Source: an uncultured virus (IMG/VR IMGVR_UViG_3300028887_000111) (Duplodnaviria > Heunggongvirae > Uroviricota > Caudoviricetes). From it: a DNA stretch of 64,000 nucleotides. The stretch is taken from positions 1 through 64,000 of IMG/VR virus record IMGVR_UViG_3300028887_000111. One strand, given 5' to 3'. Shown here one piece after another: positions 30,747 through 60,083 of this stretch. The first letter of the stretch is position 1, and the number at the start of each line of letters is the position of its first letter. Made by a program: the position numbers and the translations under genes. The notes beneath the pieces were generated by a model. It had not been told where the DNA came from and ran no database searches. It worked only from the letters and a program-made list of their open reading frames with translations.

Positions 30747-30825
30747 TAAAAAGGTAATTTTAACATACGCAACAAACCTAAATCTTGTCTGAAAAGACGT
30801 TAAAACTAAGGAAAGGATAAATTTA

Positions 30826-32324: not shown

Positions 32325-32439
32325 TTTCGGTATTAGGGCAATAGCCTTGATATAAATTCATTCATTTTACACACCGATTGCACATAATGGATGCAATCGC
32401 TCACCCCATTAACAATTTTGGGGAGAAAGGAGAGTTATT

Positions 32440-33389: not shown

Positions 33390-34013
33390 ATGTCTAAATT
33401 CATAGACTTGACAGGATTAAAATTTAATATGCTTACCGTAAAAGAACGAGATTTTACAAAGAAGAAAACATATTGGATATGCCAATGTGATTGTGGCAAA
33501 ACTACATCTGTCGAATCAAGTAATTTAAAGAACGGGCTTGTTAAGAGTTGTGGTTGTTTAAAACACACCCCATGGAACAAAACTCATGGAGAATCTAATA
33601 CTAAATTATATAGACATTGGGTATGTATGATGCGCAGGTGTTATGATGAGAATTATCATTCTTATAAGTATTATGGTGCAAGAGGCATCGAAGTGTGCAA
33701 AGAATGGCACAACTACGAAGTCTTTAAGACTTGGACGCTTCTTACAAGAGCAGATGAGTCTTTAACCTGCGAACGCAAAGACTATAATGGGGATTATTGT
33801 CCTGAGAATTGTACATGGATTCCTTTGAGCGAACAGGCAAACAATAGGCGAAGCTGCATTATGATAACTTACCAAGATAAAACTCAAAATCTTATGCAAT
33901 GGTGTAAAGAATTAAAGTTAAGTTATCCTAAAATCTATACGAGAATGTATAGAAATAAGATGACTTTTGAGGAGGCTATTAAAATTCCTGTCGAGCAATC
34001 TCGAAAGGAGTGA
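33390..34013 (+). CDS. HNH-related homing endonuclease
   Basis: DLTGLKF, WICQCDCG, SCGC, YGARGIEVC, ERKDYNGDYCPENCTW. Confidence 0.8.
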   Translation: MSKFIDLTGLKFNMLTVKERDFTKKKTYWICQCDCGKTTSVESSNLKNGLVKSCGCLKHTPWNKTHGESNTKLYRHWVCMMRRCYDENYHSYKYYGARGIEVCKEWHNYEVFKTWTLLTRADESLTCERKDYNGDYCPENCTWIPLSEQANNRRSCIMITYQDKTQNLMQWCKELKLSYPKIYTRMYRNKMTFEEAIKIPVEQSRKE

Positions 34014-43619: not shown

Positions 43620-44483
43620 TTAAGCTCCCTCCTCCTGTATTAACCCGTATTGTACCATAAGTTCTTTTTGCCACGCTCTTTCATCGAGGTATTGCATTTC
43701 TGCATTGAGTCTGGCGATTATTGCTTCTTGTTTGGTTTCGTAATAACAAAACAAAACCCTTTCACCGTAATGTTTTAACTCTGCTTTCCACGGTTTGGTA
43801 GGATAATTTTTTATATAACCAACGCCCTTAACACCAGAAGTATTATCGGCTCTTAATTTTTGGTTATGGGATTGATCTATTCTTGTTGCTTTATCGTCTA
43901 AATTTTCTCGCCTATTGTCTAACGCATTGCGGCTTATATGATCTGCGTCTTTCATCCCAAACAATTGATGCATTGATTGAGATTTTTTGTCTCTAACCCT
44001 AACATATCCATTGTGCGTATGTTCGATATGCCAACAGACATCTTTAATTGTGTCAAAATCACTCATAGAAAAATATACTTCTACCGAGTCATCGTTGTCG
44101 CAACGAAACTTCCCGAAAGGCTCGTGCTTGTCATCTGTAAGATTTAATTCTAATGTCGGATTATCTTTTAGTGGCTTTTTGCAGGCTTCTTGTGCATTTT
44201 TAATCATTTTGATACCACATTCTCTCCTACAACAACCACATGATTTTGATGTGCCATCTTTTAAGTGACTATGTTTTACGTCTACCAAATTGTGTTCATC
44301 GCAATCGCATATACAATGCCATTTTGCCGATACATCACGCCCATTAGAATAATGATAGTCATTGGCTCTGCATATAACTGTTAATCTCCCAAATTTCATC
44401 CCCGTGAAATCTTCCTTTGGTTTGGCTTTTATGTCTGTAAACTTTTTCTTTTCATTTTCAATAAAGTCATTATCTAATATCAT
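43620..44483 (-). CDS. HNH-AP2 homing endonuclease
   Basis: KFGRLTV, CDC, SCGC, DHISRNALDNRRENL, NTSGVKGV. Confidence 0.85.
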   Translation of the reverse strand: MILDNDFIENEKKKFTDIKAKPKEDFTGMKFGRLTVICRANDYHYSNGRDVSAKWHCICDCDEHNLVDVKHSHLKDGTSKSCGCCRRECGIKMIKNAQEACKKPLKDNPTLELNLTDDKHEPFGKFRCDNDDSVEVYFSMSDFDTIKDVCWHIEHTHNGYVRVRDKKSQSMHQLFGMKDADHISRNALDNRRENLDDKATRIDQSHNQKLRADNTSGVKGVGYIKNYPTKPWKAELKHYGERVLFCYYETKQEAIIARLNAEMQYLDERAWQKELMVQYGLIQEEGA

Positions 44484-44997
44484 TTTCTCCCCTCTCTCCA
44501 CATGGGTACATCTCTTTGCACTCGCCAGTATAAACACACATTGGGACAAGAAACTCTGCAAACTCAGGATTTGTCTCCAACACCTTATCGCATATTCCTC
44601 GCACCCACGCTCTCGTTTCTTCCGCAGCTTGATTACACAGTCTCTTGTTGGCAATAACCATTAATTCTTCTCCATTAACGTCCCAAATCATCGTTACTGG
44701 TGCGTCCTGCGGAGCTTTGTTTCTATCATACTCGTTCTGTCTGTCATTTCTTTGCGATCTGACATAGGGCTGAGAATGAACGTGGCGTACTAAGTGACCT
44801 ACCACACAATAGGGTATATCCTCTAACAAGAAGGAGAACCGCAAACATCTTATCGGTGAATGTCTTGCTTTCAAAATTGCCTTCTTCCATTCTTCTGTCG
44901 GCGGATTCTTAACATTCAGCCCGACAGTAACCAATGCCCTCTGTTTTACTTCTACCCAATCTTCTTCTGTGGGATGTCTTAAAACTGTTATCTTCAT
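44470..44997 (-). CDS. thyX: Flavin-dependent thymidylate synthase (short form)
   Basis: HSP, RH-x7-SQR, RLC..A..E.R motifs. Confidence 0.8.
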   Translation of the reverse strand: MKITVLRHPTEEDWVEVKQRALVTVGLNVKNPPTEEWKKAILKARHSPIRCLRFSFLLEDIPYCVVGHLVRHVHSQPYVRSQRNDRQNEYDRNKAPQDAPVTMIWDVNGEELMVIANKRLCNQAAEETRAWVRGICDKVLETNPEFAEFLVPMCVYTGECKEMYPCGERGENDIR

Positions 44998-46248: not shown

Positions 46249-46277
46249 ATTATACCGCACCGACTTGCATTTGTCAA
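46249..46277 (-). promoter_or_regulatory. Consensus sigma-A promoter for the nucleotide-metabolism operon
   Basis: TTGACA-17 bp-TATAAT on the minus strand with an A-rich upstream element. Confidence 0.85.
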
Positions 46278-46284
46278 GTGTTTT

Positions 46285-46946
46285 TCAAAATTTTTTTTGA
46301 GAAATTTTCACGTCTGTTTCTTGGTAATTCTTTGCCACTATGACTGTAGCGGCGGGCAAGTTCTCGTCGGATTTATAGGCGAAAACTATGGTATTACCAC
46401 TTGCCCTGTAAGAGAAATCAGTCTCTTTATCGAGATTATTTATGCACTCTTTCACCCATTTGTTAATCTCGGCATCCTTTATTGGCACACCGTCCGCATA
46501 CAAGAAGAAGTCTTTTGGGTATTGTATGGTATCGGCTGTTGGGTTTTCATCATCGAGATAAATCTCTTTATCGCAAGCACCGCAATGCAGATATTCTCCC
46601 TCAAATCTATCACTTACAATATCATCAAACTTGTAGGCAAGTTTTGACTCACAATGTGGGCAAGTAATCTCATATTCCTGTTCCTTATCCTGATAGTTGT
46701 TCTCAATTATCCTCATTAGTTATCTCCTTAATCGCAGTTTGTGGAAGTTACATATTGCACAATATAAGCGACTTCCTTTGTTTCGTTATTGTGTTTAGGA
46801 TATACCATTACGTCATATATCCCATAGTCATACTGCTCTACGTCAGTAAAAATTTCATCCATATCCGCAGGGTCGAGATAACCACCACGGGCTATTGCTC
46901 GTTTGTACTGAGCTTCGGTTATGGGCTTTTCTTTTCTTGCAAGCAT
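46285..46946 (-). CDS. Two hypothetical proteins (46285-46716 Zn-ribbon; 46728-46946)
   Basis: CPHC/CGAC pair; RBSs present. Confidence 0.5.
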
Positions 46947-47128
46947 TAATTATTCCTCCTAAACTTTTTAACAAGCGAATCTACGGCTTCTTGCCAAGTC
47001 ATTTTATCATCATATACTCGTTCAATGAAGTATGCTAATTCGTTAAGTTGCTCATCTGTAAAATTAAAGCCTTCCATTTTTGCACTTGCGATGGCGTTAT
47101 TAAAGGCTTTCTTGGTTTCGTCGGTCAT
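46946..47128 (-). CDS. VbhA-like antitoxin
   Basis: 60 aa helical protein with SxxxEG inhibitory motif (SAKMEG). Confidence 0.6.
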   Translation of the reverse strand: MTDETKKAFNNAIASAKMEGFNFTDEQLNELAYFIERVYDDKMTWQEAVDSLVKKFRRNN

Positions 47129-47162
47129 AAGTCACCTCGCATTAAATGTTTCTTCTATTGGG

Positions 47163-48368
47163 TTAGCACCCATTCACTACATTAATTATAGTAGGTGTTA
47201 GACACACCTCTATCCCATAGCTAAAAGCATCTGGAAATACCTTTCTAATTATCTGCAAACTGCCGTTTACGTCTGAATTGATTAGAGTATTATTTGCTTG
47301 AAACAACCCTCTTTTAACTCTCCGTCTTTTATTGTAATTTTCTTTACACGGTAGTTCTCCATCTAAAAAACTTGTTCCACTTGTATAACTTTCTTCAGTT
47401 TCAACAAACTCAATGCCTACATCTTCACATTTATATTTAAGCTGTTGTATCAACATTTTATAAGGAATAAAAACAAAGTTCTGCGAATTTACTTTATCCA
47501 TTCTAAGGTTCTGTTTCCACTCGTCGTTATGTCCTACAACTAAAGTATCTATCTGATGTTGTACACACCATTTGACTATGTAATGGCTTGCGTGGTGCAT
47601 ATAATTCTTGACTCTGTTGAACCGCTTGAAAGTTATTTGTTCAAGTTGTTTACTCCAAAACTGACCTTTGGGTAATTTAGATTGTAGTTCAGATCTGCGT
47701 TTATTATAGAATTGGTTTATGCTCTTTAATCCTCTACCGTTAATAATAAATGGCTGCTCACCAATATTATTTGAAGTTGTAGCAAGATTATTAACACCTA
47801 AATCAATTCCTACAATACGCTTGTTATCGGACATAGCATCAGGAACTTCAATCTGAGATACTATCTCCATGACGTATACACAACCCTTTGGGACAAATCT
47901 CACTTGAATTAACCTGCCGACACATCTGCATTTCCACCTAACGGATTGCAATTTGAGCACTCTAAATTTCAGTTCCCCATTCTCAAAATAGCAAGCGTTG
48001 TTTGGTATCATCCAATTGAATCTACCATCTTTCTTGAGATATTTTGGCATTTGAGGTCTGCCGAGAAATTTCTTTGGGTTCTTTTCATACTCTTTCAAAC
48101 CTTTAAAAAATGACTTCCAATTCTTATCAAGCAAACGCAGAACACAATTCGCAGGTTGGCTCATACAATCTTTATATTGCTGATGTGTTTTGAGATTGAT
48201 GTTCATTTCTTTGTATGAGACATATCGTTTGTTATTAATATATTCCTGCCTAATAATATAATTAGCATAATTATAAAGATTCTTCGCATTAAAGCACATT
48301 TCGTCAATGACACCCCACAACGAATGCGTCCTGCGGATAATCTGTTGTTCTACTCTGTTCGCAATCAT
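47163..48368 (-). mobile_element. tnpB: TnpB-family RNA-guided nuclease (IS200/IS605 group), no tnpA nearby
   Basis: KNLYN, GIDLGVNNL, QLKYK, EESYTS, DVNGSLQI. Confidence 0.9.
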
Positions 48369-48423
48369 ATATTACACCATCTCCTTTTATTTACCCCTAC
48401 GTAAAATAGCCAAAAACGGGCTG

Positions 48424-49170
48424 TTAATTTTCACCATCAATCCTCTTTTTAGCTATCTCAAAGTAGTTCTCATCAAGCTCTATGCCTATAAAATCTCTGT
48501 TGGTGTTCTTTGCTGCCACGCCTGTTGAACCGCTACCCATGCAATTGTCAAGCACTAAGTCTCCTTCGTCTGTATAGGTCTTAATGAGATATTCAAGCAG
48601 AGCAACAGGCTTTTGTGTGGGGTGGAACTTATCTTTATCATGGGTGAACTTCTGTACATCTCTCGGATAACGTGTGCCATGATTGACTGTCAACTGTTCC
48701 TTTGACCATTTCGTGTCATAATTGGTGCTGGCTCTACCTGATATTGCCGTATAAGGTTTGCCCTCTGTCATCTGAGGATAATACTTCATTGCGTGAGATT
48801 TGTCTTTGACATAGCAAGCTGCACTCTTGGAAAAGATTAATATATTCTCGTGTGCTTTCATAGGAGCAAAGTTGCAATTCAATCTGCCAGTAGCCATAGG
48901 TTTCTCCCATATCCATTCATACTTCAGCATATCAAGATTGCTTGCCCCTAATACCTTATCAAATGGCGTTTGAGCAAAGAGTGCTATACAACCATTGTCT
49001 TTTATGATGCGTTTGTACGCCCCCCATAGAGATTCAAGATTAATGGTGCTATCCCATTTATTCTTAGTAGTACCATAAGGAAGATCGCAAAGAATCAAGT
49101 CTACACTCTTATCTGGAATACCGCCCATTAATTCAAGGCAGTCGCCTTGCCATAATTCTATATTGCTCAT
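48424..49170 (-). CDS. N6-adenine/N4-cytosine DNA methyltransferase (beta class)
   Basis: DLPY, HPTQKP, DNCMGSGSTG. Confidence 0.93.
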   Translation of the reverse strand: MSNIELWQGDCLELMGGIPDKSVDLILCDLPYGTTKNKWDSTINLESLWGAYKRIIKDNGCIALFAQTPFDKVLGASNLDMLKYEWIWEKPMATGRLNCNFAPMKAHENILIFSKSAACYVKDKSHAMKYYPQMTEGKPYTAISGRASTNYDTKWSKEQLTVNHGTRYPRDVQKFTHDKDKFHPTQKPVALLEYLIKTYTDEGDLVLDNCMGSGSTGVAAKNTNRDFIGIELDENYFEIAKKRIDGEN

Positions 49171-49198
49171 TCAGTCTCCTTTCACATAAAAGCAGAAT

Positions 49199-49573
49199 TT
49201 AATTTTCAACCGTAACATCAACTCCCATAACCATTGATACCTCATTGTTTGGAAACATTGCCTTTAAACCATCAAACATTTTGGTTGCTTCCGTGTAAGA
49301 TATTTGATTAGGTATAATTGACGCCACCACTGTACTATCAGGTTTTACATCAAGAGTCTTTACAGAATTGATAAAAGTCTCTGAGTGTATCTGTCTCTCG
49401 ATAGCAGTAATGTCTATAACTTCTTTAGCTTTCTTAATTAAAGTCTTGTGATAGTCTGAAATCTCAACAGAGTCGCCTTCATATCCCCAAATTCGTCTAC
49501 TATCAAGATGATCGCCGTCCCAAAAAGCACATATATCTCCCACTTGGATTTCTCTTTCATAAAAATCTTTCAT
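49199..49573 (-). CDS. Hypothetical protein
   Basis: GAGGTG RBS; bounded by repeat sites. Confidence 0.55.
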   Translation of the reverse strand: MKDFYEREIQVGDICAFWDGDHLDSRRIWGYEGDSVEISDYHKTLIKKAKEVIDITAIERQIHSETFINSVKTLDVKPDSTVVASIIPNQISYTEATKMFDGLKAMFPNNEVSMVMGVDVTVEN

Positions 49574-49601
49574 TATTTCACCTCATAAAACACAGGTTTA
49601 A

Positions 49602-50510
49602 TCAATTAATCGCATCATAAATTTTACCTATCTCATATTCATATTTGTCAATAGGCGTTCTCTTGTAAAAATCACAATAACATTTGCCGTCATCGTGAAT
49701 GACATATTCAATGCCTTTGGTATACTTCGTGGTATCTGCTACTCCTTGCAGAAAGAACACTCTCATTCTGTCTTTACGTCTTAATCTGCACCACCATGAA
49801 TCAGATGTATGCTCGTAATTGATAATATCAAATTGATCTTCCTTTTTGCTATCAAACATATAGTTGGTGAAATAACCTTTATAACGCCAAAATACATCGC
49901 ATCTAAACCTTACTGAAATAAAACCTTGTTGCTGCGCCCAATTGATAAAATTATCTCGCCACCGATTAAAGTTTTCAATCGGACGAAAAATAACAGCTAC
50001 CGCCGATACAGTAATACCAACAGAGTTTAATCGAGAGATAATTCTTTTATAGGCTAAAGCTGGCGTATGAATTTGCATTATGTTCTCTCGCTCTGCTTGT
50101 CTATAATCGTGAACTGAGATGTTTACATAATCCACAACATCTCTCATTAACTCAATCGGTATCTGATAAAGGTTAGTGCCATTAGTTGTCATAGTAACTC
50201 TCAACACTTTATCCTTTATGTGGAACTCTCTTAGCTTAATCAATACAAGTGATAACAAATCGACATCAAGTGTAGGCTCACCACCTGTAATATCAAGAGA
50301 TACTGGATTCTTGTCTCCTATTTCATTTAAGAGATGTTCTAAAGACGGGATAAAGTTATCTAAAAAACCTTTTATATCATATTGTACTACAGGCTTATCT
50401 TTGTTGTAGCAGAACGGGCACTTCGCATTACAGCCACAAGGAATCACCAATTTAACAGAGATAACCTTGTTGTAATCTTCTCGTTCTCGAAAGAAAATCA
50501 CATTACTCAC
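49602..50510 (-). CDS. Radical SAM protein
   Basis: CNAKCPFC, TGGEP, TTNG. Confidence 0.9.
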   Translation of the reverse strand: MSNVIFFREREDYNKVISVKLVIPCGCNAKCPFCYNKDKPVVQYDIKGFLDNFIPSLEHLLNEIGDKNPVSLDITGGEPTLDVDLLSLVLIKLREFHIKDKVLRVTMTTNGTNLYQIPIELMRDVVDYVNISVHDYRQAERENIMQIHTPALAYKRIISRLNSVGITVSAVAVIFRPIENFNRWRDNFINWAQQQGFISVRFRCDVFWRYKGYFTNYMFDSKKEDQFDIINYEHTSDSWWCRLRRKDRMRVFFLQGVADTTKYTKGIEYVIHDDGKCYCDFYKRTPIDKYEYEIGKIYDAIN

Positions 50511-50546
50511 CTCACTTAAAACGAATCTTTTATTGCTTTTTTAGGG

Positions 50547-50705
50547 CTACTTTTTGGCTATTCTACGTTGTAAAATTTTGGGTTCTCGCTGCCCACCTTG
50601 CATTGTAGTGAGTGAAGGAGAAATACCCCCCCCACTGTAACAACGCTTGATAACATCCATGCCTTTAATCGGCAGATTTACTATCACTTTTATCTCGTTC
50701 TTCAT
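50547..50705 (-). CDS. TRD-like mini-protein 9 (52 aa), G8 tract in frame
   Basis: AAGGAG RBS; MKNEIK...RCYSGGGISPSLTTMQGGQREPKI. Confidence 0.75.
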   Translation of the reverse strand: MKNEIKVIVNLPIKGMDVIKRCYSGGGISPSLTTMQGGQREPKILQRRIAKK

Positions 50706-50856
50706 GTTTGCTCCTTATAAGCATTTTAGGCTCAGTGTTGCCACCTCTGCCTATGCCATTCAATGTGGGAGATACCCCCCCCGTAGTGTATATTCTGCGC
50801 CGACACTCCGTCCACTGTGGAATTTTGAGTTCGGCTATTTGTTTTAATTCATTCAC
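50665..50856 (-). CDS. TRD-like mini-protein 8 (63 aa), G8 tract in frame
   Basis: AAGGAG RBS, GTG start; RIYTTGGVSPTLNGIGRGGNTEPK. Confidence 0.75.
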   Translation of the reverse strand: MNELKQIAELKIPQWTECRRRIYTTGGVSPTLNGIGRGGNTEPKMLIRSKHEERDKSDSKSAD

Positions 50857-51007
50857 TTTTTATCTCCTTAAAGGCGTAGTGATAACTACCTCCACTGATA
50901 TTTGAACAATGACACATACCTACACAACAGCCACTATATATTCTATGCTGCTGATGGTATTGAGTGCCATAATTCTTCTCTCCTACCCCCCCCACCAGTT
51001 TTGGCAA
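50849..51007 (-). CDS. TRD-like module 7, G8 tract in frame, start uncertain
   Basis: PKLVGGVGEKNYGTQYHQQHRIY...GGSYHY; TTG start without a clear RBS. Confidence 0.55.
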   Translation of the reverse strand: MPKLVGGVGEKNYGTQYHQQHRIYSGCCVGMCHCSNISGGSYHYAFKEIKSE

Positions 51008-51021
51008 GGAAGTGAAAGGGG

Positions 51022-51288
51022 TTACTGAAAAGAAAATTCAAGCTGTCTGTCTACATTGGAGAACTTCTCGTCATAACACTCATAGTCATTATCATACTGT
51101 GCTTTATAAAGGTGTTCTGCTAACAGTTCAATGCAGTTTGTTACGATGCTGTTGCCAGCCTGTCGGTAGAGCTGAGTATCACTCATACCTACCGCCTTGC
51201 ACTTTTCTACATCTTCATTAGTAAAACCCATCAGTCTCCAACATTCGGTAGGAGTTAATTTGCGGATAGCCCAATCTTCAACGTTCAT
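51022..51288 (-). CDS. C5 methyltransferase C-terminal subunit (motifs IX-X)
   Basis: IRKLTPTECWRLMGF, LYRQAGNSIV; AAAGGA RBS before ATG 51288. Confidence 0.85.
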   Translation of the reverse strand: MNVEDWAIRKLTPTECWRLMGFTNEDVEKCKAVGMSDTQLYRQAGNSIVTNCIELLAEHLYKAQYDNDYECYDEKFSNVDRQLEFSFQ

Positions 51289-51514
51289 ACTATCATTCCT
51301 TTCAATTCTGTATATATTGCAATTACCTGCGGTGAGAGTAGGGCAGGTTTGCCCCCCCCCTCTGAACTCTGCCACGACGCAGCTTTGAATTTGGATAGGA
51401 TAGGTCAGCCACTCCACCATTCTCACAAAGGATATATCCTTGCTTCGTAGCTTGTTTTACCCTTATGTAATCTTTACTTTCATCGGGAGATAAGAGATCG
51501 TGCACATCACTCAT
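51289..51514 (-). CDS. TRD-like module 6, G9 tract out of frame (G8 would fuse it to the motif IX-X subunit)
   Basis: KQATKQGY...DLSYPNSKLRRGRVQ / GGQTCPTLTA. Confidence 0.8.
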
Positions 51515-51680
51515 TTTTATCTTCCTTTCTGACTTTCTTTAGAAGCACCCCAGTTCTTGCTTTCTGTTGATTGCTAACTCCGTTGTCATATCTTGTTAAA
51601 ATACAACTTGCATACTGCATAGGGCAAGGTTTATTCACAGTCATGTCCACCCCCCCTATGGTTATGTATTTGTCTGGCAT
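51507..51680 (-). CDS. TRD-like mini-protein 5 (57 aa), G7 tract in frame
   Basis: MPDKYITIGGVD...ASCILTRYDNGVSNQQKARTGV. Confidence 0.7.
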   Translation of the reverse strand: MPDKYITIGGVDMTVNKPCPMQYASCILTRYDNGVSNQQKARTGVLLKKVRKEDKNE

Positions 51681-51827
51681 TTCTTAACCCTCTTTATCAA
51701 TATCTTCTTGGCATCTTTGTAATCTCTGGAAAGTATTGTCTTAGAAATACCCCCCCCCGCTTACGACAATGCCTTGCTCACTGTAATTGGTTGGCAATGC
51801 CACCGCCACTCTTATCTGATTTTTCAT
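51662..51827 (-). CDS. TRD-like mini-gene 4, G9 tract out of frame
   Basis: With G8 reads MKNQIRV...SGGGISKTILSRDYKDAKKILI. Confidence 0.7.
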
Positions 51828-51967
51828 CTTTACTTACCTTTCTTATTAGTATCTTACAGGGATCTTTGTGTTCTCTCGTGGATAGAGTACACATACCCCC
51901 CTACGGAATACAACCGCCCATTATGTTCATACATATTAGGCATTGTCATTAGCAGTTTTACGTTCAT
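51778..51967 (-). CDS. TRD-like mini-gene 3, G6 tract out of frame
   Basis: With G5 or G8 reads MNVKL...RLYSVGG(G)MCTLSTREHKDPCKILI. Confidence 0.7.
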
Positions 51968-52107
51968 TTTTTCACCAACACTTTCGGAACTCCTTTGTAG
52001 TCTGTTGATTTGAGTGACCACATTGCACCCCCCCCACTGGCTACTTCTTGATTTTGATGTTGCTTACCAGTAGAGGGAAGGACTCGTCCCACATATTTTA
52101 TTTCCAT
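51964..52107 (-). CDS. TRD-like mini-protein 2 (47 aa), G8 tract in frame
   Basis: GGAG RBS; MEIKYVG...SGGGAMWSLKSTDYKGVPKVLV. Confidence 0.75.
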   Translation of the reverse strand: MEIKYVGRVLPSTGKQHQNQEVASGGGAMWSLKSTDYKGVPKVLVKK

Positions 52108-52203
52108 TGAACTACTCCTGTTGCACCAAATGTGCCTTTAAATTCTGAATAGCTGTTTTAGCATACTGCTGTTTAAGTGTGCGACAATATCCGTTCTGGT
52201 CAT

Positions 52204-53169
52204 TCATCGGAACTGCCCCCCTATAGTGACATCGTTAGATGTATAGATAGGCTGATTGCAAATAATGCCGTAATTAGGGAAGTCATTGCGTGTCTCATAC
52301 AGCTCATTCCATAGTTCTTCTTCCTCTGAGAGTGTGCCGTTATTAGCCATCTCATCAAGTGCCTTACCAGCAGCATCAGATGTGAGAATATACTTCTCAT
52401 TCACATCAAAGTCAAGAACATGGAATAAACGTATGCCCGTATCAAATGCCTGTGGAAACTCAAACTTACCAGTGTCTACATCCTTGCGTATACTTACAGC
52501 AAATACGCGTTCCCGGTTCTGAGGTATGCCACAATCCTTTGCATTGACTATCTGCCAATAAGTGTTATAACCAATCTCACTGAGATAATCGCACCACTCA
52601 TTAAACTGTGGCTTAAATCTCTGTGATACAAGATTCTTTACATTTTCAAGAAGTAAGAACTTCGGCAGAGTGTCTGTCTCTTTAGCCTTTGCGAGTAAGC
52701 GTTCTACTTCATAAAGCAAACCGCTTCGTGTCTTACCACGTTCAATGCCCTGAATCTGACCAGCGATGCTGATGTCGGTGCATGGGAACGAGTATGTTAC
52801 AAAGTCTGCATAAGGCAATTCTTCTATCTTTGATATGTCTCCCATATTCTTAGAAAGAACTGATGCCAGATAATACTTCTTTAAGTCTGCACTGTTGCGT
52901 TTCTTCTGCCAGTCATAAGCCTTGTTCTTCTCAAAGACATAGCCAATGTTACGACTTTCAAGGTACTCCACCATTTCATCTACGGGCGGATAATCATAGT
53001 TCTCAATAAGTTCTGGTGTAAGTCCACAGTGAACGGCAGCGTAGCTCACGATTGCATCTTTGTCAATCTCTGATGTTGCTATTACCTCAGTGTCAAATAA
53101 ACCAGAGTTTTTAAATCCTCTGATCTGAGCACCTATGCCAGAAAATAATTCAATCATTGTCAACTTCAA
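52204..53169 (-). CDS. C5 cytosine methyltransferase N-terminal subunit (motifs I-VIII), ending just after a G6 tract
   Basis: FSGIG, SFPC, LENV, QNRERVF; lacks motifs IX-X. Confidence 0.92.
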   Translation of the reverse strand: MKLTMIELFSGIGAQIRGFKNSGLFDTEVIATSEIDKDAIVSYAAVHCGLTPELIENYDYPPVDEMVEYLESRNIGYVFEKNKAYDWQKKRNSADLKKYYLASVLSKNMGDISKIEELPYADFVTYSFPCTDISIAGQIQGIERGKTRSGLLYEVERLLAKAKETDTLPKFLLLENVKNLVSQRFKPQFNEWCDYLSEIGYNTYWQIVNAKDCGIPQNRERVFAVSIRKDVDTGKFEFPQAFDTGIRLFHVLDFDVNEKYILTSDAAGKALDEMANNGTLSEEEELWNELYETRNDFPNYGIICNQPIYTSNDVTIGGQFR

Positions 53170-53255
53170 TTAAATTCCTCCTTGTTTCTAATTTGTTACT
53201 CTGTCAGTCAATAAAAGTAAAGTTTTATTGGATAAATAGAGCCACTTTTCGGCTA

Positions 53256-54119
53256 TTATACGTTACCCAATCCCTTTAAAATATGAGCGATTACATCAAC
53301 TGTCCAACCATTACCTATGGCTGTGTATCTTGCTGTGTTTGAAACGCAGCTCGTATACTCATCTGGCAGCGTTTGTAATCTTTCATATTCAAGAGGTGTG
53401 AGTTTTCTTGCTCTGCCATTATCCATTACTTTCTTTTGAGTATTACCACCGCCACAAGTTGTAAGAGTATGGCACTTAAAAGCAGGATTAAAAATTCTTT
53501 TGTGAATATCGTGATTTTTAAAATCCATTATCGCACACACTTGTTTACTCATATCAATATTCGTCAACGGATAATTGTAGAAAAAATTTTCGTCAACATT
53601 CGTTTCCATAATATCTGCAAGAACCTTATTAGATTTCTCATACATCATATCTACAGGTATATTTGTCCAATAATAGCGAGGTCTACTTTGAGCAGAGAAA
53701 TCTGCACTATCTATGAAGATTGGCTCACAGCCTAAACATTCAGATATAACCTGTTTGCATTCATCCTTCATACTTGCCACATTTTCAAACAAGAAATATC
53801 TTGGCTTCATTTCTTCAAAAGCCCTTACAAACTCAAAAAATAATTTGCTTTTACCATCAAGATTCTGTCTTGTCTTACTCTGTACGATGCTCAAAGACTG
53901 ACACGGACTACCGCCAATAAGTAAATCAAAATTTGCGTACTCTCTAAAATCCGCTGTTGTAACATCTCCTTTGTGCTCAATCTGAGGATAATTTTTTTCG
54001 CTTACTTTTATAGCGTTTGGCTCAATTTCATATGCAACATATTTTTCTACTGGAATGCCCGCCCTTTCAAGTGCCACCATTCCACAACTTATGCCGTCAA
54101 AAAGACTTAATACTTTCAT
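53256..54119 (-). CDS. C5 cytosine methyltransferase (single chain)
   Basis: FDGI, GGSPCQ, FENV, QSRPR, RKLTPLEYERLQ, GNGW. Confidence 0.93.
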   Translation of the reverse strand: MKVLSLFDGISCGMVALERAGIPVEKYVAYEIEPNAIKVSEKNYPQIEHKGDVTTADFREYANFDLLIGGSPCQSLSIVQSKTRQNLDGKSKLFFEFVRAFEEMKPRYFLFENVASMKDECKQVISECLGCEPIFIDSADFSAQSRPRYYWTNIPVDMMYEKSNKVLADIMETNVDENFFYNYPLTNIDMSKQVCAIMDFKNHDIHKRIFNPAFKCHTLTTCGGGNTQKKVMDNGRARKLTPLEYERLQTLPDEYTSCVSNTARYTAIGNGWTVDVIAHILKGLGNV

Positions 54120-54206
54120 TTTTCTCTCCTTATCACTAATTTATTATTTTGCAATCACATAAAAGAACCGTTTTATTCAGTTTTGACCTACGTAGAATAG
54201 GCAAAT

Positions 54207-54944
54207 TCAGACTGCTTCGATTCTGTTTTTTGCAATCTCAAAATATTTTTCATTAAGCTCCATACCGATGAAGTCTCTGTTAAGACTTTTAGCCGCCACA
54301 CCAGTTGAACCACTTCCCATAACGCAATCCAAAACCAAGTCACCTTCTCTTGTGTAAGTTTTAATAAGATATTCAAGTAAGGCTACTGGCTTCTGTGTGG
54401 GGTGAAATCCGCCTTTATCTCTTGTGAACTTCTGTATTGTCTTAGGGTGACGCTTGCCGTCCTTATTGTCTGTTACAATAGTTCCTAAACCGCCTTTCCA
54501 GTTGTCGCTCATTCTGCCCGACTTCTGGCAATACGGTGTACCATCTGTCTTTTGAGGAAAATACTTCATAGGTGTTCTTGTGCCATTTGTTACTCTGCCC
54601 TTGCCAAAGATGAACACGAACTCGTGTATTCTGAATGGTTGAAGATTCACATTAGGAGCATTTGTTCCATTGTCTTTCTCCCATACCCAATCATATTTGT
54701 AGAGGTGTGGCATAAGATTGAACAACTGTACTCCAAACCTGAACGTGCCTGTAAGAGCAATACAACCGTCCTCTCTAATCAGACGTTCAAACTCGTGGCA
54801 CACTCTTTCTAAATCGAATGACCTATCCCATTTATTGCCTGTCTCCTTATAGGGGAGGTCACAAAGGATTAAATCTACGCTGTTGTCGGGCAAATCTTTG
54901 AGATGCTCAAAGCAGTCGCCTTGAAATAACTGTATATTACTCAT
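54207..54944 (-). CDS. N6-adenine/N4-cytosine DNA methyltransferase, paralogue of 48424-49170
   Basis: DLPY, HPTQKP, MGSGSTG; start MSNIQ after AAAGGA. Confidence 0.93.
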   Translation of the reverse strand: MSNIQLFQGDCFEHLKDLPDNSVDLILCDLPYKETGNKWDRSFDLERVCHEFERLIREDGCIALTGTFRFGVQLFNLMPHLYKYDWVWEKDNGTNAPNVNLQPFRIHEFVFIFGKGRVTNGTRTPMKYFPQKTDGTPYCQKSGRMSDNWKGGLGTIVTDNKDGKRHPKTIQKFTRDKGGFHPTQKPVALLEYLIKTYTREGDLVLDCVMGSGSTGVAAKSLNRDFIGMELNEKYFEIAKNRIEAV

Positions 54945-55007
54945 TACATCTTCCTTTCGCATAAAAGATTTATTTTATCCAGTTTTTATAGCCTGTTTTT
55001 GGCTATT

Positions 55008-55553
55008 TTACGTTAGTGATTTTTCATATTTGTGCAGCTCTCGCATCTCCAATTTGCTCGGAAGGAAGTCTCTGCAAAAATATGCCGATCCAAAGTGGTT
55101 GCCCTTAGTGTATGTAGTCATATTGCCATTAGTGTGATAATCTATTCTTGCATCAAAGCACAACATCTGAATCTCGTTTTGAAATATTTTAAACCGCTTC
55201 TTGCCCTGTATACTATTGCAAGGCAGAAGGATTGCAAAAGGTTTACCGAGTTCAAAAGCTCTCTGCAACACATCGTCCTTTTTACTAAAAGGCGGATTGC
55301 TTATCATTATGTCCCACTTCTCAGGTTCATAATTGAAGAAGTCTTGACCTTCAGCAAGAGAACTTCTAACTACGTCATACCCCCCCCGCTTGAATGTCTG
55401 GTAGAACGCCGACCATTCCTCGTCAAACGGACACCAAATCGTCTTATCTTTTGGGATAAACTCAAGCAGAGGATCAACCGCATAGTAGGGAGTGTATACT
55501 TCATCTCCTGCCGCCGTGCGGTCACAAGTTAAATACCCAACATTTAAAGGCAT
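55008..55553 (-). CDS. Short adenine-methyltransferase-like protein with an in-frame G8 tract
   Basis: DEVYTP, IWCPFD, SNPPFS. Confidence 0.8.
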   Translation of the reverse strand: MPLNVGYLTCDRTAAGDEVYTPYYAVDPLLEFIPKDKTIWCPFDEEWSAFYQTFKRGGYDVVRSSLAEGQDFFNYEPEKWDIMISNPPFSKKDDVLQRAFELGKPFAILLPCNSIQGKKRFKIFQNEIQMLCFDARIDYHTNGNMTTYTKGNHFGSAYFCRDFLPSKLEMRELHKYEKSLT

Positions 55554-55590
55554 TTTAATCTCTCCTCTCTAATCTAATAAAAGGCATATT

Positions 55591-56284
55591 TCAAGTTTTG
55601 TATGGTTCTGGAAGGAAACGCCATGCTACAACGTGAGTATATTGTTTTAATCCTACCCAACGATATACATCAGACTCATCTCCGAGAATAGGAGAATAAT
55701 TAGTCCAATACCCAATTTGTATTTCGCCACTGTCATCTGTAACAAGATAATGTTCACGTTCAGGCGGTGGAGAACCTATATACCACATATCTCTCATCTT
55801 TTTCACCTCACATAAAAGACACGTTTCATTCGTTCAATACTCGTCAATATCTTCATCGGTAAAATGGCTATACAAAAATCTGATTTCTGCAATAGTTAAT
55901 ATTATTAGCCTTTCCGAATCATCGGTATAGTCGTTATAACTGTGTGCTGAGCGGTCTTTCTTATCCGCTATCAGCTTATCAACTATGCTCTCCATTAGTT
56001 TTGTTTCTTCATCAGTCATTCTGTTCACCGTCCCTTTTCTTCCTAAAAACTATCTCATATTCTGAGTTAGGATAACTAATAGTTCTCTCTAAGCTCTGAC
56101 CACTTTCAAGTTCTGTTTCTTCTGCGGCTTCTTCATACTGCTCTTGCAACCATGCATAAAAAGCGGCAACAACTTCATCGGTAACATCAGATTTATTTAT
56201 CCAACGCTTTTTATCCTTGGTGAGTGTTCCAGCGTATATAGTACCCGCAAAGCCTATACCAACATGATATTCAGCCATTTTCAT
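55591..56284 (-). CDS. Three small hypothetical proteins (55591-55797 DUF551-like, 55834-56028, 56012-56284)
   Basis: VVAWRFLPEPY in the first; RBSs; bounded by repeat sites. Confidence 0.55.
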
Positions 56285-56312
56285 TTCCTCCTAACTGTTT
56301 GAAATTCGTCTT

Positions 56313-57449
56313 TCAAACAACCTTGATGCCAGTAATTTCTTCAAACACACTTGCATCAAAATTAGGAATATCCTTGACTGCAACTCTTTCATCTTCTGTC
56401 ATATTATCCCACATAATACCACAAGCTGTTTTGAAATCAACCGATTTGAGATAACCGCCAGTTGTTTCGTGTTCAGGATGTGCTTCTTTTTCTTCCGCCG
56501 TCATATTCTCACTGTAAATCCACCAGTCGTTCTCATACTTCCAATCCATAGCTCTTACAGCTAAGTTGCTATTAAAAGCATTTCTGTCAATATCTAATGG
56601 CTTGTTGAAAGCGCATAACGGTTGCTCAATTGAATTAAAAAAGCCAGTAGAGAAATCACCGCTGTTCCAATCACCGCTGTTCCAATTGCCGCTGTTGCAA
56701 TTACCGCTGTTGTAATCACCGCTGTTGCGATTGCCGCTGTTCCAATTACCGCTGTTGTAATCACCGCTGTTGTAATCACCGCTGTTGCAATTACCGCTGT
56801 TGTAATCACCGCTGTTGCGATTACCGCTGTTGTAATCACCGCTGTTGTAATCACCGCTGTTGCAATTACCGCTGTTGCAATTACCGCTGTTGTAATCACC
56901 GCTGTTGCAATTACCGCTGTTGCAATTACCGCTGTTGTAATCACCGCTGTTGCGATTACCGCTGTTGCAATTACCGCTGTTGTAATCACCGCTGTTGTAA
57001 TCACCGCTGTTGCAATTACCGCTGTTGTAATCACCGCTGTTGCGATTACCGCTGTTGCAATTACCGCTGTTGTAATCACCGCTGTTGCGATTACCGCTGT
57101 TGCAATTACCGCTGTTGCGATTACCGCTGTTGCGATTGCCCGTACAGTCCTTTCCTGTATTGGCTAAATCAAGAACCTCGTGCCAAGTAAGCTCCCTTAA
57201 AATTACGATTTCATCTGTGACGGATTTATCGCCTTTAGTCTCAACATTACCGATAGCTTCGACTTCTGCAACCTTATTGTTGCTGTTAAAGCCGTAATAA
57301 TTGAAGCAATCTGAGACCTTCCGGCAGAAGTGAAATCCTGCACCACACATCTCAATATTGCCATCGTGCTTGAAAGTTTTGCCAACCTCGTACTGAAAAC
57401 CTCTGCAAGTCCAGTCAGGGTTGAACACTTTGTAGCCTTTAATACTCAC
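56313..57449 (-). CDS. Pentapeptide-repeat protein
   Basis: 32 (N/D)xNSG repeats between globular N- and C-terminal domains. Confidence 0.85.
   Translation of the reverse strand: MSIKGYKVFNPDWTCRGFQYEVGKTFKHDGNIEMCGAGFHFCRKVSDCFNYYGFNSNNKVAEVEAIGNVETKGDKSVTDEIVILRELTWHEVLDLANTGKDCTGNRNSGNRNSGNCNSGNRNSGDYNSGNCNSGNRNSGDYNSGNCNSGDYNSGDYNSGNCNSGNRNSGDYNSGNCNSGNCNSGDYNSGNCNSGNCNSGDYNSGDYNSGNRNSGDYNSGNCNSGDYNSGDYNSGNWNSGNRNSGDYNSGNCNSGNWNSGDWNSGDFSTGFFNSIEQPLCAFNKPLDIDRNAFNSNLAVRAMDWKYENDWWIYSENMTAEEKEAHPEHETTGGYLKSVDFKTACGIMWDNMTEDERVAVKDIPNFDASVFEEITGIKVV
56658..57137. repeat. 15-bp tandem repeat, about 32 units
   Basis: ACCGCTGTTG(CAATT/TAATC/CGATT) units. Confidence 0.95.
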
Positions 57450-57517
57450 TATTATTCCTCCTTAAAACTCAACTTTTATTTGGTTAATCATTACCGCTAA
57501 TTTGTTGTCTTGTAAAT

Positions 57518-58600
57518 TTAAAACAAAGCACAGCCTTGCCTCTTAAAGTCTGCTACTGCATTATCCCATGCCTCATTATCTAAGCAACAAAGTTCTTTCA
57601 GATGCTTCTTGCAGTAAATCTTGCTTGTTCCTCTGCCGAGAAGTTTCAGATTCATTGCAAGCACATCATTCTGTCTTACGTTCCTACCGCACACTTCGCA
57701 AGTCTTGTTGAAGTATTGCAAAGCCGTATCATAGTTGTCAAGTCCTTTGTGCTCCATAAACTCTGTCACAACTTCTTCTGTTGGTTCTGGTCTAAGTAAA
57801 CCACCATTCCAAGCTCCGTTTACATATTCGTCTATAGTGCAATTCAGCTTAGTCCAGCGATTCTCCTGCGCAAAGACTTTGCGCAGGATGCTGCGCCATC
57901 GGTCATACGCCATGCGATACCAATACTTATCTAATACCCAAGTGTACTTGGTGTAATACGGGCAAGCCACTGAACACCCAACTCTACTATATCCCTTACG
58001 GTATTTAGGATTTATTTCAATGCCGTTTTTAAGAATATAGAGCCATATGTCAAGCTCACTCCACTTTCTTATAGGCAAGCAACTAAACCAATCACGATCT
58101 CCCCACTTTGGATTGTGCGATATATCCTGTCGGTCTGCTCTCTGCGCTGATTCGTCATTTCTCACGCCCATAAAGAAAAGCATCTGTGGTTCACTATCAA
58201 AGTATTCTATGCTCTTACCTTCCTTGAATACTGTACAGCAACCACGGCTGAATCTTGTGGGAATGAAATGCTCTTTGAAGATGTATTTGTAGAACCCAAT
58301 GTCGGGATTGATAATTGTCCAGTCTTTATGAGCTTTTACCATTTTATAGGTATCGCCTGTATCAAGAGTAGTGTTATTGAAGTGAACACCCACATCAGGT
58401 AAAACACGAGTTACCAAATCAAGAGTTACCATGCTGTCTTTACCTGTAGATGTAAATACTACTTTCTTGTGATTCGGATAGTCCTGTATCGCCTTGTTGA
58501 TAACGCTCATTGAGTCTGCAATTCTGTCATCAAGTTCCCCACTGAGCCTTGCTATGGTCTGCTGCCAAGTCTCAAATTGTTGCGAAAGTTTGATTTTATT
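57518..58600 (-). CDS. PAPS-reductase-family (PP-loop) protein, body; its 5' part is on the inverted segment
   Basis: STGKDS, CCTVFK, GVRNDES..R, RVGC..CP; frame is open up to the inverted repeat. Confidence 0.88.
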   Translation of the reverse strand, partial: NKIKLSQQFETWQQTIARLSGELDDRIADSMSVINKAIQDYPNHKKVVFTSTGKDSMVTLDLVTRVLPDVGVHFNNTTLDTGDTYKMVKAHKDWTIINPDIGFYKYIFKEHFIPTRFSRGCCTVFKEGKSIEYFDSEPQMLFFMGVRNDESAQRADRQDISHNPKWGDRDWFSCLPIRKWSELDIWLYILKNGIEINPKYRKGYSRVGCSVACPYYTKYTWVLDKYWYRMAYDRWRSILRKVFAQENRWTKLNCTIDEYVNGAWNGGLLRPEPTEEVVTEFMEHKGLDNYDTALQYFNKTCEVCGRNVRQNDVLAMNLKLLGRGTSKIYCKKHLKELCCLDNEAWDNAVADFKRQGCALF

Positions 58601-58855
58601 GCCAATTTAGCAACGTAGAATAGGCATTTCCCAGTGAAAGGAGAATGATAATGCAACCCATCTTCAAAGAGATGATTCAAATGTGGAGCGATTTAGGTTA
58701 TCCTCTGCTGATAGAGGAAGGCAAGTATTGGCTTGAAAACCACTTCGTCTGCGGATTTACAGCCGATGGTGAACTTCACAAGCTGTATAAATACAAGGTG
58801 GCAGACGATTTAAGCATTGAGATAACGCCTTACAAGTCGAATAAAATCAAACTTT
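58585..58855. other. Invertible segment carrying the RBS and first 70 codons of the PAPS-reductase-family gene (OFF orientation)
   Basis: 16-bp inverted repeats AAAGTTTGATTTTATT (58585-58600) and AATAAAATCAAACTTT (58840-58855); inversion gives an in-frame fusion. Confidence 0.85.
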
Positions 58856-59162
58856 AATGTCTTGTCTTTACATCAGAAAAGTCAAACTTAGGTTTATTCT
58901 TTAATTTCTCGTTGCATTCATCAATGGCTTTGTGTAGATCGGACTTCCTACCCCATTCAATATACCCTGCAATATTTGTGATAAGATAGAATATATACAT
59001 TACTACCATAGGAATATTCATAGTGCCGAGAAAGTTTACTCCCAACCACGCTATGTTCCCTAATATCCATATCCACCAGCCAGAGCGTTTCTTATGGGCG
59101 ATAAGTACATTACCGCCCAAGCTGAATACGCTGCCGAGAATTGAAAATATTAAGACTATCAC
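58854..59162 (-). CDS. PnuC-like small membrane protein
   Basis: Three hydrophobic helices, GW..W...N and GY..W patterns. Confidence 0.6.
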   Translation of the reverse strand: MIVLIFSILGSVFSLGGNVLIAHKKRSGWWIWILGNIAWLGVNFLGTMNIPMVVMYIFYLITNIAGYIEWGRKSDLHKAIDECNEKLKNKPKFDFSDVKTRH

Positions 59163-59983
59163 TTCTTGTTATCCTCTGCGATTATCTCTTTTGCAAGCTT
59201 CTGAGCTGCTTCTTCAAAGGCAATTTCTTTAGCTCTCTTGCGGAGAAGATAACGCTCGTGTCTTGCCTTACGACGCTCAACGTGCCATGCTTCGTGTTCC
59301 TGTTTTTCTTCTACTGTATTAAGAACCTTGCCACAGTAGATACAAGTGCGTGATAATTCATCTTCACATCTATTCAATTTGACAGCTTCGGCGTATGCTT
59401 TGTAAAAATTACCTCCACAAATTGCATTCGCAAGAGCTTCAAGAACACCCTGTCTTTCATCATAATCTGCCTTATCACAAGTTGCAGAACCCTTAACGGT
59501 AGTGACCTTATCAAAAACATTGCCACTAAGCAACTCAATATTTGTTGTCATTGTCGGGATAGTGCCGTTGCAACTCTTATCCACTCTCGTTCCTTCTGTT
59601 ACATAAAATGTAAATTTCATTGAATTTTTACCTCCATTTTTTGCCGATATACCGTCGTTTGAAAATGCGTTAAAATGTTCTGCTAACTCTTTATTTAATC
59701 TCTCTGCATATTCTTCGGCTTGTTTTTCATTAAACACATACTCCACATTCGGGAATAACACGGATCTAATAGCTACTGGTTCAAGCGTATCTCCCCTACA
59801 CCACCAACCATGATTATTTTGGCAAAGACCACCGCAGCTATGTTTATAACCACTTTCTTCAAAATCAACTGCATAATCACCACCTGAAGAAATGCCACGA
59901 ATAATGCCTACTTCACCAACTTCGACATTATCAATGTCTCTTTGAACTACATAACGCACTCTGTCTCCAACTTTAAACTCCAT
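59159..59983 (-). CDS. Hypothetical protein (SH3/KOW-like N-terminus, C2H2-like motif)
   Basis: FKVGDRV; CxxC...HxxxH; AAGGAG RBS. Confidence 0.55.
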   Translation of the reverse strand: MEFKVGDRVRYVVQRDIDNVEVGEVGIIRGISSGGDYAVDFEESGYKHSCGGLCQNNHGWWCRGDTLEPVAIRSVLFPNVEYVFNEKQAEEYAERLNKELAEHFNAFSNDGISAKNGGKNSMKFTFYVTEGTRVDKSCNGTIPTMTTNIELLSGNVFDKVTTVKGSATCDKADYDERQGVLEALANAICGGNFYKAYAEAVKLNRCEDELSRTCIYCGKVLNTVEEKQEHEAWHVERRKARHERYLLRKRAKEIAFEEAAQKLAKEIIAEDNKK

Positions 59984-60054: not shown

Positions 60055-60083
60055 ATTATAACACATAAATATTAGAATGTCAA
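60055..60083 (-). promoter_or_regulatory. Consensus sigma-A promoter at the head of the cassette region
   Basis: TTGACA-17 bp-TATAAT with extended -10 TG. Confidence 0.85.

Follow-up and report, generated by a model that had tools for sequence, protein, structure and literature searches.

Whether phage mosaicism results from homologous exchange at short conserved linkers or from random illegitimate joining followed by selection is an old question, and it is raised in an unusually explicit form by a stretch of 64,000 nucleotides from an uncultured virus (IMG/VR IMGVR_UViG_3300028887_000111; Caudoviricetes), hereafter referred to as the window. In the accessory-gene region of this phage, about twenty 18-bp linkers, each composed of two inverted arms around a 6-bp centre that is specific for its position, stand between the genes in conserved order, and relatives differ in whether a given slot is filled, empty or flipped. 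A sequence-only reading had described this arrangement as an integron-like platform for the capture and shuffling of gene cassettes. In this work, we are asking whether the linkers are joints of gene exchange and by which machinery the crossovers could be made. The linkers constitute an ordered scaffold common to related phages, and the DNA between two given linkers differs among these phages, comprising unrelated genes, nothing at all or a flipped cassette; the sites are joints of cassette exchange. For the crossovers, we tentatively favour, at a probability of roughly 45%, a linker-guided exchange on short homology, resembling that attributed to the promoter-early stem-loops (PeSLs) of T4-type phages.

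The window covers the leading 64 kb of a linear viral contig that measures 72.7 kb. Another contig (G001; 104,704 bp), which has terminal repeats and is rated complete, is 99.996% identical to the window's contig over 22.6 kb, and a second complete contig of 99,373 bp (G002) is a mosaic relative, in which blocks of 83-96% identity alternate with unrelated DNA. Plus-strand genes (1 to 36.5 kb) encode terminase, portal, tape measure and endolysin; the minus-strand genes from 36.5 kb on encode dUTPase, NrdD, DNA polymerase, primase-helicase and many accessory proteins. The 32 kb outside the contig, seen in G001, carry genes for a YonO homologue, ClpP, a beta-CASP nuclease, UvrD and a Xer-like tyrosine recombinase. 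By its YonO-type single-chain RNA polymerase (36.5% identity to SPbeta YonO over 97%), the virus, a siphophage of roughly 105 kb, is a distant SPbeta-like phage from the rumen. Contigs with parts of the stretch come from bovine and goat gut metagenome runs of several studies; in a phage collection, megablast returned no close records and blastn short distant matches only.

The linker and its register with translation signals

All of the 13 18-mers listed by the sequence-only reading (13/13) were found where it had placed them, and their consensus on the coding strand is T[G/A]AAA-N6-TTTTA[T/A]. Compared with 200 dinucleotide-preserving shuffles, the pattern T[AG]AAA-N6-TTTTA is strongly enriched in the whole 72.7-kb contig, with 17 copies on the minus strand (0.91 expected, shuffle maximum 4), 16 of which fall in the minus-strand gene arm, and 7 copies on the plus strand (0.82 expected). 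The enrichment is specific for N6, since the same arms at N4, N5, N7 or N8 yield 0-2 copies, i.e., background. The looser pattern of the sequence-only reading likewise exceeds its shuffled background between 47000 and 59000 (15 copies on the plus and 12 on the minus strand vs 0.90 and 0.72 expected), and its impression that the head operon is free of the motif proved sound, given 1 and 1 copies in the structural arm (1-36540) vs 0.45 and 0.36 expected. The core replication genes of the same minus-strand arm contain no copies. One site of the window (59603-59620) and seven sites beyond it (contig 68905-72664) had been missed. The symmetry of the motif is only partial, and it is oriented with the minus-strand genes. 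The right arm (TTTTAT or TTTTAA) is better conserved than the left one (ATGAAA, ATAAAA, TTGAAA or ATTAAA), and the arms of sites 47141 and 58582 are degenerate.

The motif is in register with translation signals, and its overlap with upstream stop codons and its position before ribosome-binding sites had been noted in the sequence-only reading. Among 25 loosely matched minus-strand sites (36.5-72.7 kb), 18 are followed by a start codon preceded by a Shine-Dalgarno (SD) sequence, 1-41 nt past the right arm (11-18 nt in 13 of the 18), with GGAGG-type ribosome sites within a few bases 3' of TTTTAT or TTTTAA. The stop codon of the upstream open reading frame (ORF) lies inside the left arm at eight of the 25 sites, or nine if site 72647 is counted, the upstream gene of which is visible only in the complete relative. 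A linker begins with the left arm T(G/A)AAA, which contains the stop codon or directly follows it, and continues with a position-specific 6-nt centre, the right arm TTTTA(T/A), the SD sequence and a start codon. Around the sites, conservation stops at the arms.

Beyond the close relatives, several distant ones (polymerase about 55% identical) contain 2-6 copies of TAAAA-N6-TTTTA-AGGAG vs 0-1 in controls, and four others contain none; TTTTAAGGAGG is common before early genes without a left arm. Across the distant lineages, the arm sequences do not change in step. A search for compensatory change of both arms returned as top N6 dyads ATATT/AATAT, GATAT/ATATC, TTAAT/ATTAA and AAATT/AATTT, which are coding DNA and look like chance. 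An RNA hairpin as the functional form was also discarded: with the arms paired, the energies are marginal (-3.5 to +3.4 kcal/mol), the minimum-free-energy structure leaves 6 of 18 sites unfolded, and a hand count found flanking positions pairing in 6 of 18 sites, which is chance level. Neither is the motif a sigma-70 promoter, as it lacks a hexamer pair and a start after TTTTAT would remove the SD sequence. Outside the window, at contig 70382-70425, tandem degenerate sites with the centres cgtgtc and gacgaa, joined by GGC, stand before an unrelated 88-aa gene; both centres recur at a distance of 14 kb, at 55812 and 56299. Near-identical gacgaa sites also precede genes 56012-56284 and 70115-70381, for which paralogy was considered and rejected for lack of similarity.

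An ordered scaffold with exchanged slots

The exact 12-nt core (AAA, centre, TTT) of 15 of the 21 sites is present in G002 in the same order, and a further three of the 21 occur as one-change variants. The 16 intervals between consecutive shared sites fall into five that are homologous (89% or more covered), two that are partly homologous and nine that are unrelated (4% or less covered by blastn, 0% by tblastx), and their lengths differ as widely as 2677 nt in the window phage vs 18 nt in G002, and 2426 vs 115 nt. At the protein level, both neighbouring ORFs are non-homologous at nine of 14 scorable site matches. Likewise, one identical 18-mer, ATAAAACCTACGTTTTAT (centre CCTACG), is found in six viral contigs before three different genes, with a variable SD stretch after it.

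In relatives, three intervals are empty, and their two sites adjoin each other. G002 reads ttctgc-GCC-gaaaca at the place of a methylase gene and TnpB in the window, and 18 nt between ctttac and gattcg at the place of 2.7 kb. A comparable site-GCC-site arrangement, with three letters between, is given by the joint 47158->53211 of a metagenome contig (X10), and the metagenome joint 55817->57462 yields a hybrid site. These joints come from assembled contigs at 85% likeness, several with short sides, and are given weight only where the G002 arrangement agrees; portions of the window that these runs do not cover were left out of the evidence.

The third state of a slot is inversion. Sites 58582 and 58841 are the sole same-centre pair in the genome and are mutually inverted, forming a 15-nt inverted repeat that bounds a 270-bp cassette, in which a 70-aa plus-strand gene has its own ACGTAGAAT box and SD sequence. 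In one relative (G004), exactly the segment 58600-58840 is flipped between the same two sites; the orientation in G002 is that of the window.

Since the contents of the slots differ between conserved linkers, exchange must have occurred inside the linkers or directly at them, through double crossovers of relatives that infect the same cell. What the sequence-only reading had called a capture and shuffling platform is, thereby, supported as far as the behaviour of the genes as cassettes is concerned (nine of 16 intervals unrelated, three empty, one inverted); the label "integron-like" has to be given up. In G002, genes have been swapped and lost between sites; block ends are also seen at site-less boundaries. 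Among 31 site matches at the nucleotide level, the site is kept with the downstream gene in 10 and with the upstream gene in two; gene 56012-56284 is found elsewhere in G002, having moved without its sites; and another relative (G007) has two identical sites as direct repeats, 918 bp apart.

Genes, promoters and candidate catalysts

Features of the locus and of the remaining genome. Positions are those of the window unless stated otherwise; sites are written on the coding strand.
Feature	Position	Strand	Remarks
Linker site, centre GAAACA, degenerate arms ATAGAA...TTTAAT	47141..47158	-	precedes gene 46946-47128; core also at G002 19046, only GCC after another site; metagenome joints at 47158/47159
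Linker site ATTAAA-ttctgc-TTTTAT	49186..49203	-	upstream stop in left arm; precedes methyltransferase (MTase) 48424-49170; same-centre variant in G002 adjoins GAAACA site
Linker site ATTAAA-cctgtg-TTTTAT	49585..49602	-	precedes gene 49199-49573; G002 18913; joint 49601->50506 in contigs of two studies (short sides, 24 and 18)
Linker site ATAAAA-gattcg-TTTTAA	50516..50533	-	precedes radical-SAM gene; G002 18635; 3' part of a 58-nt composite repeat (family D3)
Linker site ATAAAA-ctttac-TTTTAT	53211..53228	-	precedes MTase fragment 52204-53169; G002 variant 18 nt before gattcg site (empty slot)
Linker site ATAAAA-cggttc-TTTTAT	54159..54176	-	precedes MTase 53256-54119; same centre at G002 17945, both neighbours non-homologous
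Linker site ATAAAA-taaatc-TTTTAT	54961..54978	-	precedes MTase 54207-54962; G002 homology stops at the site's 3' edge (54960), after which a different gene begins
Linker site TTGAAA-tatgcc-TTTTAT	55577..55594	-	stop in left arm; precedes MTase 55008-55553; G002 16677 variant (catgcc) before homologous MTase, upstream neighbour different
Linker site ATGAAA-cgtgtc-TTTTAT	55812..55829	-	precedes gene 55591-55806; in contig X2, the right arm of this site, with the DNA downstream, joins the centre of site 56299
Linker site TTGAAA-gacgaa-TTTCAA	56299..56316	-	stop of pentapeptide gene in left arm; precedes gene 56012-56284; 91%-identical G002 block ends inside right arm
Linker site ATAAAA-gttgag-TTTTAA	57462..57479	-	precedes pentapeptide-repeat gene; G002 15459, both flanks conserved
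Linker site ATAAAA-tcaaac-TTTCGC	58582..58599	-	inverted partner of 58841; left boundary of segment inverted in G004
Linker site ATTAAA-gtttga-TTTTAT	58841..58858	-	inverted partner of 58582; right boundary of inverted segment
Linker site ATGAAA-tttaca-TTTTAT	59603..59620	-	not in the earlier list; 91% G002 block starts here (own 59619)
Invertible cassette: ACGTAGAATAGGC box, SD, 70-aa gene (58645-58857)	58600..58840	+	opposite orientation in G004
Cassette-gene range including small ORFs	47163..58510	-	
TnpB	47163-48368	-	192.8 bits vs cut-off 100
MTases	48424-49170, 51022-51426 and 52204-53169 (split), 53256-54119, 54207-54962, 55008-55553	-	
Radical SAM protein	49602-50510	-	
Pentapeptide-repeat protein	56313-57449	-	
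PAPS-reductase-like protein	57518-58510	-	
Perfect sigma-70 consensus promoter, 12 of 12, TG-extended	60055..60083	-	upstream of gene 59159-59983
ACGTAGAATAGCC box (-10-like), then 5-bp hairpin	50556..50568	-	
Further box copies	53251-53263, 55001-55013	-	
Further box copies	48399-48411, 54190-54202, 58613-58625	+	
Further box copy	contig 70880-70892		
Recombinase 1, Xer-like tyrosine recombinase, 392 aa	G001 22663-23841		outside window
Recombinase 2, tyrosine recombinase, 334 aa	G001 48597-49601		outside window
YonO-type single-chain RNA polymerase, 915 aa	G001 29932-32679		outside window

The slots are rich in MTase genes, five of which stand in a row (48424-55553; two of the phrog_67 type, two phrog_116, one phrog_799), resulting in what looks like an anti-restriction island. 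The two phrog_67-type MTases are 76% alike over part of their length. One phrog_116 MTase is split into an N-terminal (52204-53169) and a C-terminal part (51022-51426) by a gap of about 780 bp, which holds small ORFs and runs of 8-9 G, shows indels in metagenome contigs and gave no Rfam intron match. The gene of the TnpB-family RNA-guided nuclease is present at 81% identity in another relative (G006), whereas G002 and a metagenome contig (X5; joint 47159->48445) lack it; a search for an omega-RNA family gave no match. The pentapeptide-repeat gene contains 15-nt tandem units (56564-57223, about 31 registers), and its product counts 378 aa vs 308 aa in G002. Four genes of HNH or homing endonucleases are located in the structural and nucleotide-metabolism modules (35-1324, 12593-13531, 33390-34013 and 43620-44654), and two further ones in the remaining 32 kb of the genome. 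Searches of the window for known RNA families and for tRNAs found none.

The array had been described as having no visible promoter. This is correct for the 18-mer itself, which has no -35/-10 pair; however, a perfect consensus promoter upstream (60083-60055) and seven boxes in the arm are now evident. The former is likely the start of the array transcript; its leader contains a GC-rich hairpin with a T-run before gene 59159-59983, which could be an attenuator or a small RNA. A second perfect sigma-70 consensus promoter lies on the minus strand at 46249-46277. Promoter-like matches in the region are as frequent as in shuffles (43 vs 43.6), and neither of the two 12-of-12 promoters is at a site. 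The boxes (ACGTA[GAT]AATAG[CG]C) occur in both orientations and consist of 13 nt with a -10-like hexamer without a -35, followed by an AGCC-N5-7-GGCT hairpin; they may represent promoters of a class outside the sigma-70 consensus. A linker site begins 26 nt after the box hexamer in 4/4 forward copies of the contig and ends 16 nt before it in three of seven copies. A box with its short hairpin stands at the 3' end of each MTase gene (forward after three, reversed after two), and one copy is positioned to drive the lone plus-strand gene 58645-58857. A link to a YonO promoter was considered because a box in the yonN-yonK spacer of SPbeta, ACCCTCGTAAAATAAG, resembles that of the phage, and was dismissed as a mapped start, since the primer published for primer extension is situated upstream of this box.

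As for catalysts, it had been stated that the window holds no recombinase, which is true for tyrosine recombinases but overlooks TnpB; elsewhere in the genome, two tyrosine recombinase genes are present as candidates, with catalytic residues kept. In an alignment with XerH, recombinase 1 has the Arg, His-x-x-Arg, Trp and Tyr at their expected positions; the array lies at about 65-78 kb of G001, about 30-50 kb away from its gene. Recombinase 2 is of a divergent family without a Pfam match, and its gene, one of a group of early genes, follows a sigma-70-like promoter. Its homologues of 300-340 aa number more than 100, and several of them are encoded on contigs of about 100 kb. Its residues R98, K127/K130, H250, R253, H289 and Y298 are invariant in 43 sequences, and its structural model (pLDDT 84.8) matches, among the PDB entries listed, exclusively tyrosine recombinases, although weakly (top Tn1549 integrase, E 1.7e-3, TM about 0.3). 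The recombinase-2 profile detects nine of 12 related genomes, i.e., all seven with the motif and two incomplete ones, and none of the three motif-less genomes (G013-G015), a pattern confounded by relatedness. By the strict pattern, no site lies near either recombinase gene, and co-occurrence is the only tie between the candidates and the sites. In addition, the complete genome encodes a Sak-like annealing protein, SSB and an exonuclease, which among the 12 genomes were found solely in G001 and G002. A small HTH_7 protein is encoded at G001 46594-46908.

Explanations for the exchange and comparison with known systems

According to the favoured reading, linkers of the same position would guide the crossovers by their short stretch of identity (18 nt, with the SD sequence up to about 35 nt), and general or relaxed recombination would carry them out, for which the Sak-like annealing protein, exonuclease and SSB of the phage itself are the most plausible agents; the arms would serve gene expression, presumably as a two-fold-symmetric protein-binding site on DNA, with the right arm also belonging to the usual TTTTA-AGGAGG ribosome-site context of the phage. 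We lean towards this explanation because of the PeSL precedent, the role of Rad52-like recombinases, which drive phage mosaicism on short or diverged homology (PMC3945230), the annealing module of the phage itself, and the register of the motif with stop codon and SD sequence. Several findings weigh against it. With 18 nt (26-35 nt at some sites), the identity tract is at or below the minimal pairing segments quoted in the same source (Red-beta 23-27 bp, RecA 31-34 bp; PMC3945230), so that an exchange driven by homology would be of low efficiency. Site-less gene boundaries, too, coincide with ends of blast blocks, and a raw count puts 16 of 67 ends within 10 nt of a site. The arms, supposed to serve expression, lack sigma-70 hexamers, and the RNA hairpin is marginal. 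Finally, short-homology exchange leaves the inverted arms at exactly 6 bp without explanation; together with position-specific centres and same-centre inversion, these are expected of a tyrosine recombinase system.

It is this last set of features that speaks for true site-specific recombination, which we consider somewhat unlikely. The 18-mers would then be core sites for one of the two tyrosine recombinases in a natural form of recombinase-mediated cassette exchange, with differing centres making the sites heterospecific, such that only same-position sites of co-infecting genomes recombine and the inverted same-centre pair inverts its cassette. The strict N6 geometry, the collinear centres kept across phages, the sole same-centre pair being inverted around the segment flipped in G004, and the retention of both flanking sites in filled as well as empty slots would all follow, and the tract length below the quoted minimum for homologous pairing (PMC3945230) would pose no difficulty. 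The conserved catalytic residues of both candidates, the weakly matching fold of recombinase 2 and the restriction of its profile to motif-bearing and incomplete genomes point in the same direction, as does the likeness of the inner arms to the difH arms AGTTATGAAAA and AAAAGTTTGA and to the difSL arms ending in GAAAA (PMC5357621). On the other side, arms of 5-6 bp without a conserved outer part are short compared with the 10-11 bp reported for dif (PMC5357621), the fixed, gene-oriented register with stop and SD is that of an expression signal, neither recombinase gene is near the array, and the co-occurrence of recombinase 2 with the motif is confounded by relatedness. Moreover, the hybrid between different-centre sites in contig X2, the relocation of gene 56012-56284 without its sites, and the persistence of the two direct-repeat sites in G007 do not fit.

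Unlikely, in our judgement, is a mere expression signal, i.e., an operator or translation-initiation element without a part in recombination, at which junctions coincide because viable ones must fall in the roughly 30-nt gene gaps that the motif fills. The register with SD and stop, the generality of the TTTTA-AGGAGG context in the phage and its relatives, the preferential retention of sites with the downstream gene and the many block ends at site-less gene boundaries agree with this. It leaves unexplained, however, why centres are position-specific and persist even at sites with two exchanged neighbours, why both sites of an empty slot survive intact, and why a 15-nt inverted repeat of two sites bounds the flipped cassette; further, the RNA hairpin is marginal, and the core replication genes of the same arm do without the motif. 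A strict integron, in which an IntI-type integrase captures promoterless attC cassettes at an attI site downstream of Pc, is very improbable, although imperfect inverted repeats near stop codons delimit the ORF cassettes and a single consensus promoter lies upstream. Recombinase 1 scores 22.7 bits against the integron-integrase model TIGR02249 (cut-off 265), no integrase gene adjoins the array, the sites measure only 18 bp, promoter-like boxes lie within the array, and the empty slots, which hold two sites, are not the product of attC x attC excision. That the motif is a chance product of A/T-rich intergenic DNA is hardly credible: the arms are low-complexity A/T sequence, but 17 copies vs 0.9 expected, at N6 only, and the recurrence of exact cores in relatives contradict it. 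A repressor like MrpR was rejected, as both recombinases keep their catalytic residues.

Irrespective of the catalyst, the locus is a clear natural example of phage gene shuffling, and, given that the slots carry five or more MTase genes, TnpB and other accessory genes, the scaffold would constitute the route of anti-restriction genes among rumen phages. If, as seems rather doubtful, the 334-aa or the 392-aa recombinase swaps DNA between same-centre sites of two co-infecting phages, viruses would have a site-specific system of gene exchange of a new kind, one that would keep gene order, avoid deletions within a genome, and allow accessory genes, anti-restriction methylases among them, to circulate among the phages of a population.

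Word searches of the open-access literature found no description of the motif or of rumen YonO-type phages, which is not proof of absence. The nearest behavioural parallel are the PeSLs of the T4-type phages RB49 and phi1 (Arbiol et al. 2010, PMC2839356; Comeau et al. 2014, PMC4122927). Like the linkers, PeSLs are short conserved elements between small non-essential genes of a hyperplastic region, to which indels and replacements between close relatives map, and the exchange is attributed to recombination between copies (PMC2839356). However, a PeSL combines a strong sigma-70-like promoter with a terminator stem-loop, unlike the 18-mer with its missing promoter hexamers and marginal hairpin. 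The linkers further differ in having each their own 6-nt centre and in forming a collinear scaffold with empty slots, and the host signals are of the Firmicutes type (strong GGAGG sites). The ACGTA[GAT]AAT box with its 5-bp hairpin comes closer to a PeSL than the 18-mer does, yet it has no -35. Thus, the array shares the behavioural features of PeSLs but not the structural ones.

The Bacillus phage SPbeta, with which the phage shares a YonO RNA polymerase, possesses a repeated 15-bp element, SPBRE, at about ten intergenic places. The protein that binds it, MrpR (YopR), has a tyrosine-recombinase fold but no longer the catalytic residues, and it represses at promoter regions (PMC10516654). Compared with this account, both recombinases of the phage keep Arg, His-x-x-Arg, His/Trp and Tyr, and the sites are situated mostly between stop codon and SD sequence, away from promoters, save for the three of seven boxes with a site 16 nt upstream. 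The Rad52-like route to mosaicism, as outlined in PMC3945230, is similar in its combination of Sak-like annealing protein, exonuclease and SSB and in exchange at short shared sequences, and differs in that the 18-nt tracts are shorter than the 23-27-bp minimum of Red-beta.

Integron arrays resemble the locus in that ORF cassettes are enclosed by imperfect inverted repeats touching the stop codon and vary in content between relatives. Yet attC sites are structured imperfect palindromes of about 57-141 bp that recombine as folded single strands, and the linkers have 18 bp. There is neither an IntI nor an attI/Pc module beside an integrase, and both flanking sites persist at an empty slot. The array is, hence, not an integron; among the integron features tested, variable cassette content bounded by sites is the only one it shares. 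Lox sites with heterospecific spacers are used for cassette exchange, and the linker resembles the dif/Xer and lox sites in its two inverted arms around a 6-bp centre. Exchange and inversion between same-centre sites, by whichever catalyst, and two phage-encoded candidate recombinases with catalytic residues would be in line with such a system. Unlike dif and lox, the linkers have arms of 5-6 bp instead of 10-13 bp, number about 20 per genome and stand in register with translation signals. The inner arms, GAAA(A)...TTTT, are nevertheless like those of difH and difSL (PMC5357621), and the inverted arms flanking a 6-bp centre have, on paper, the geometry of a recombinase core site.

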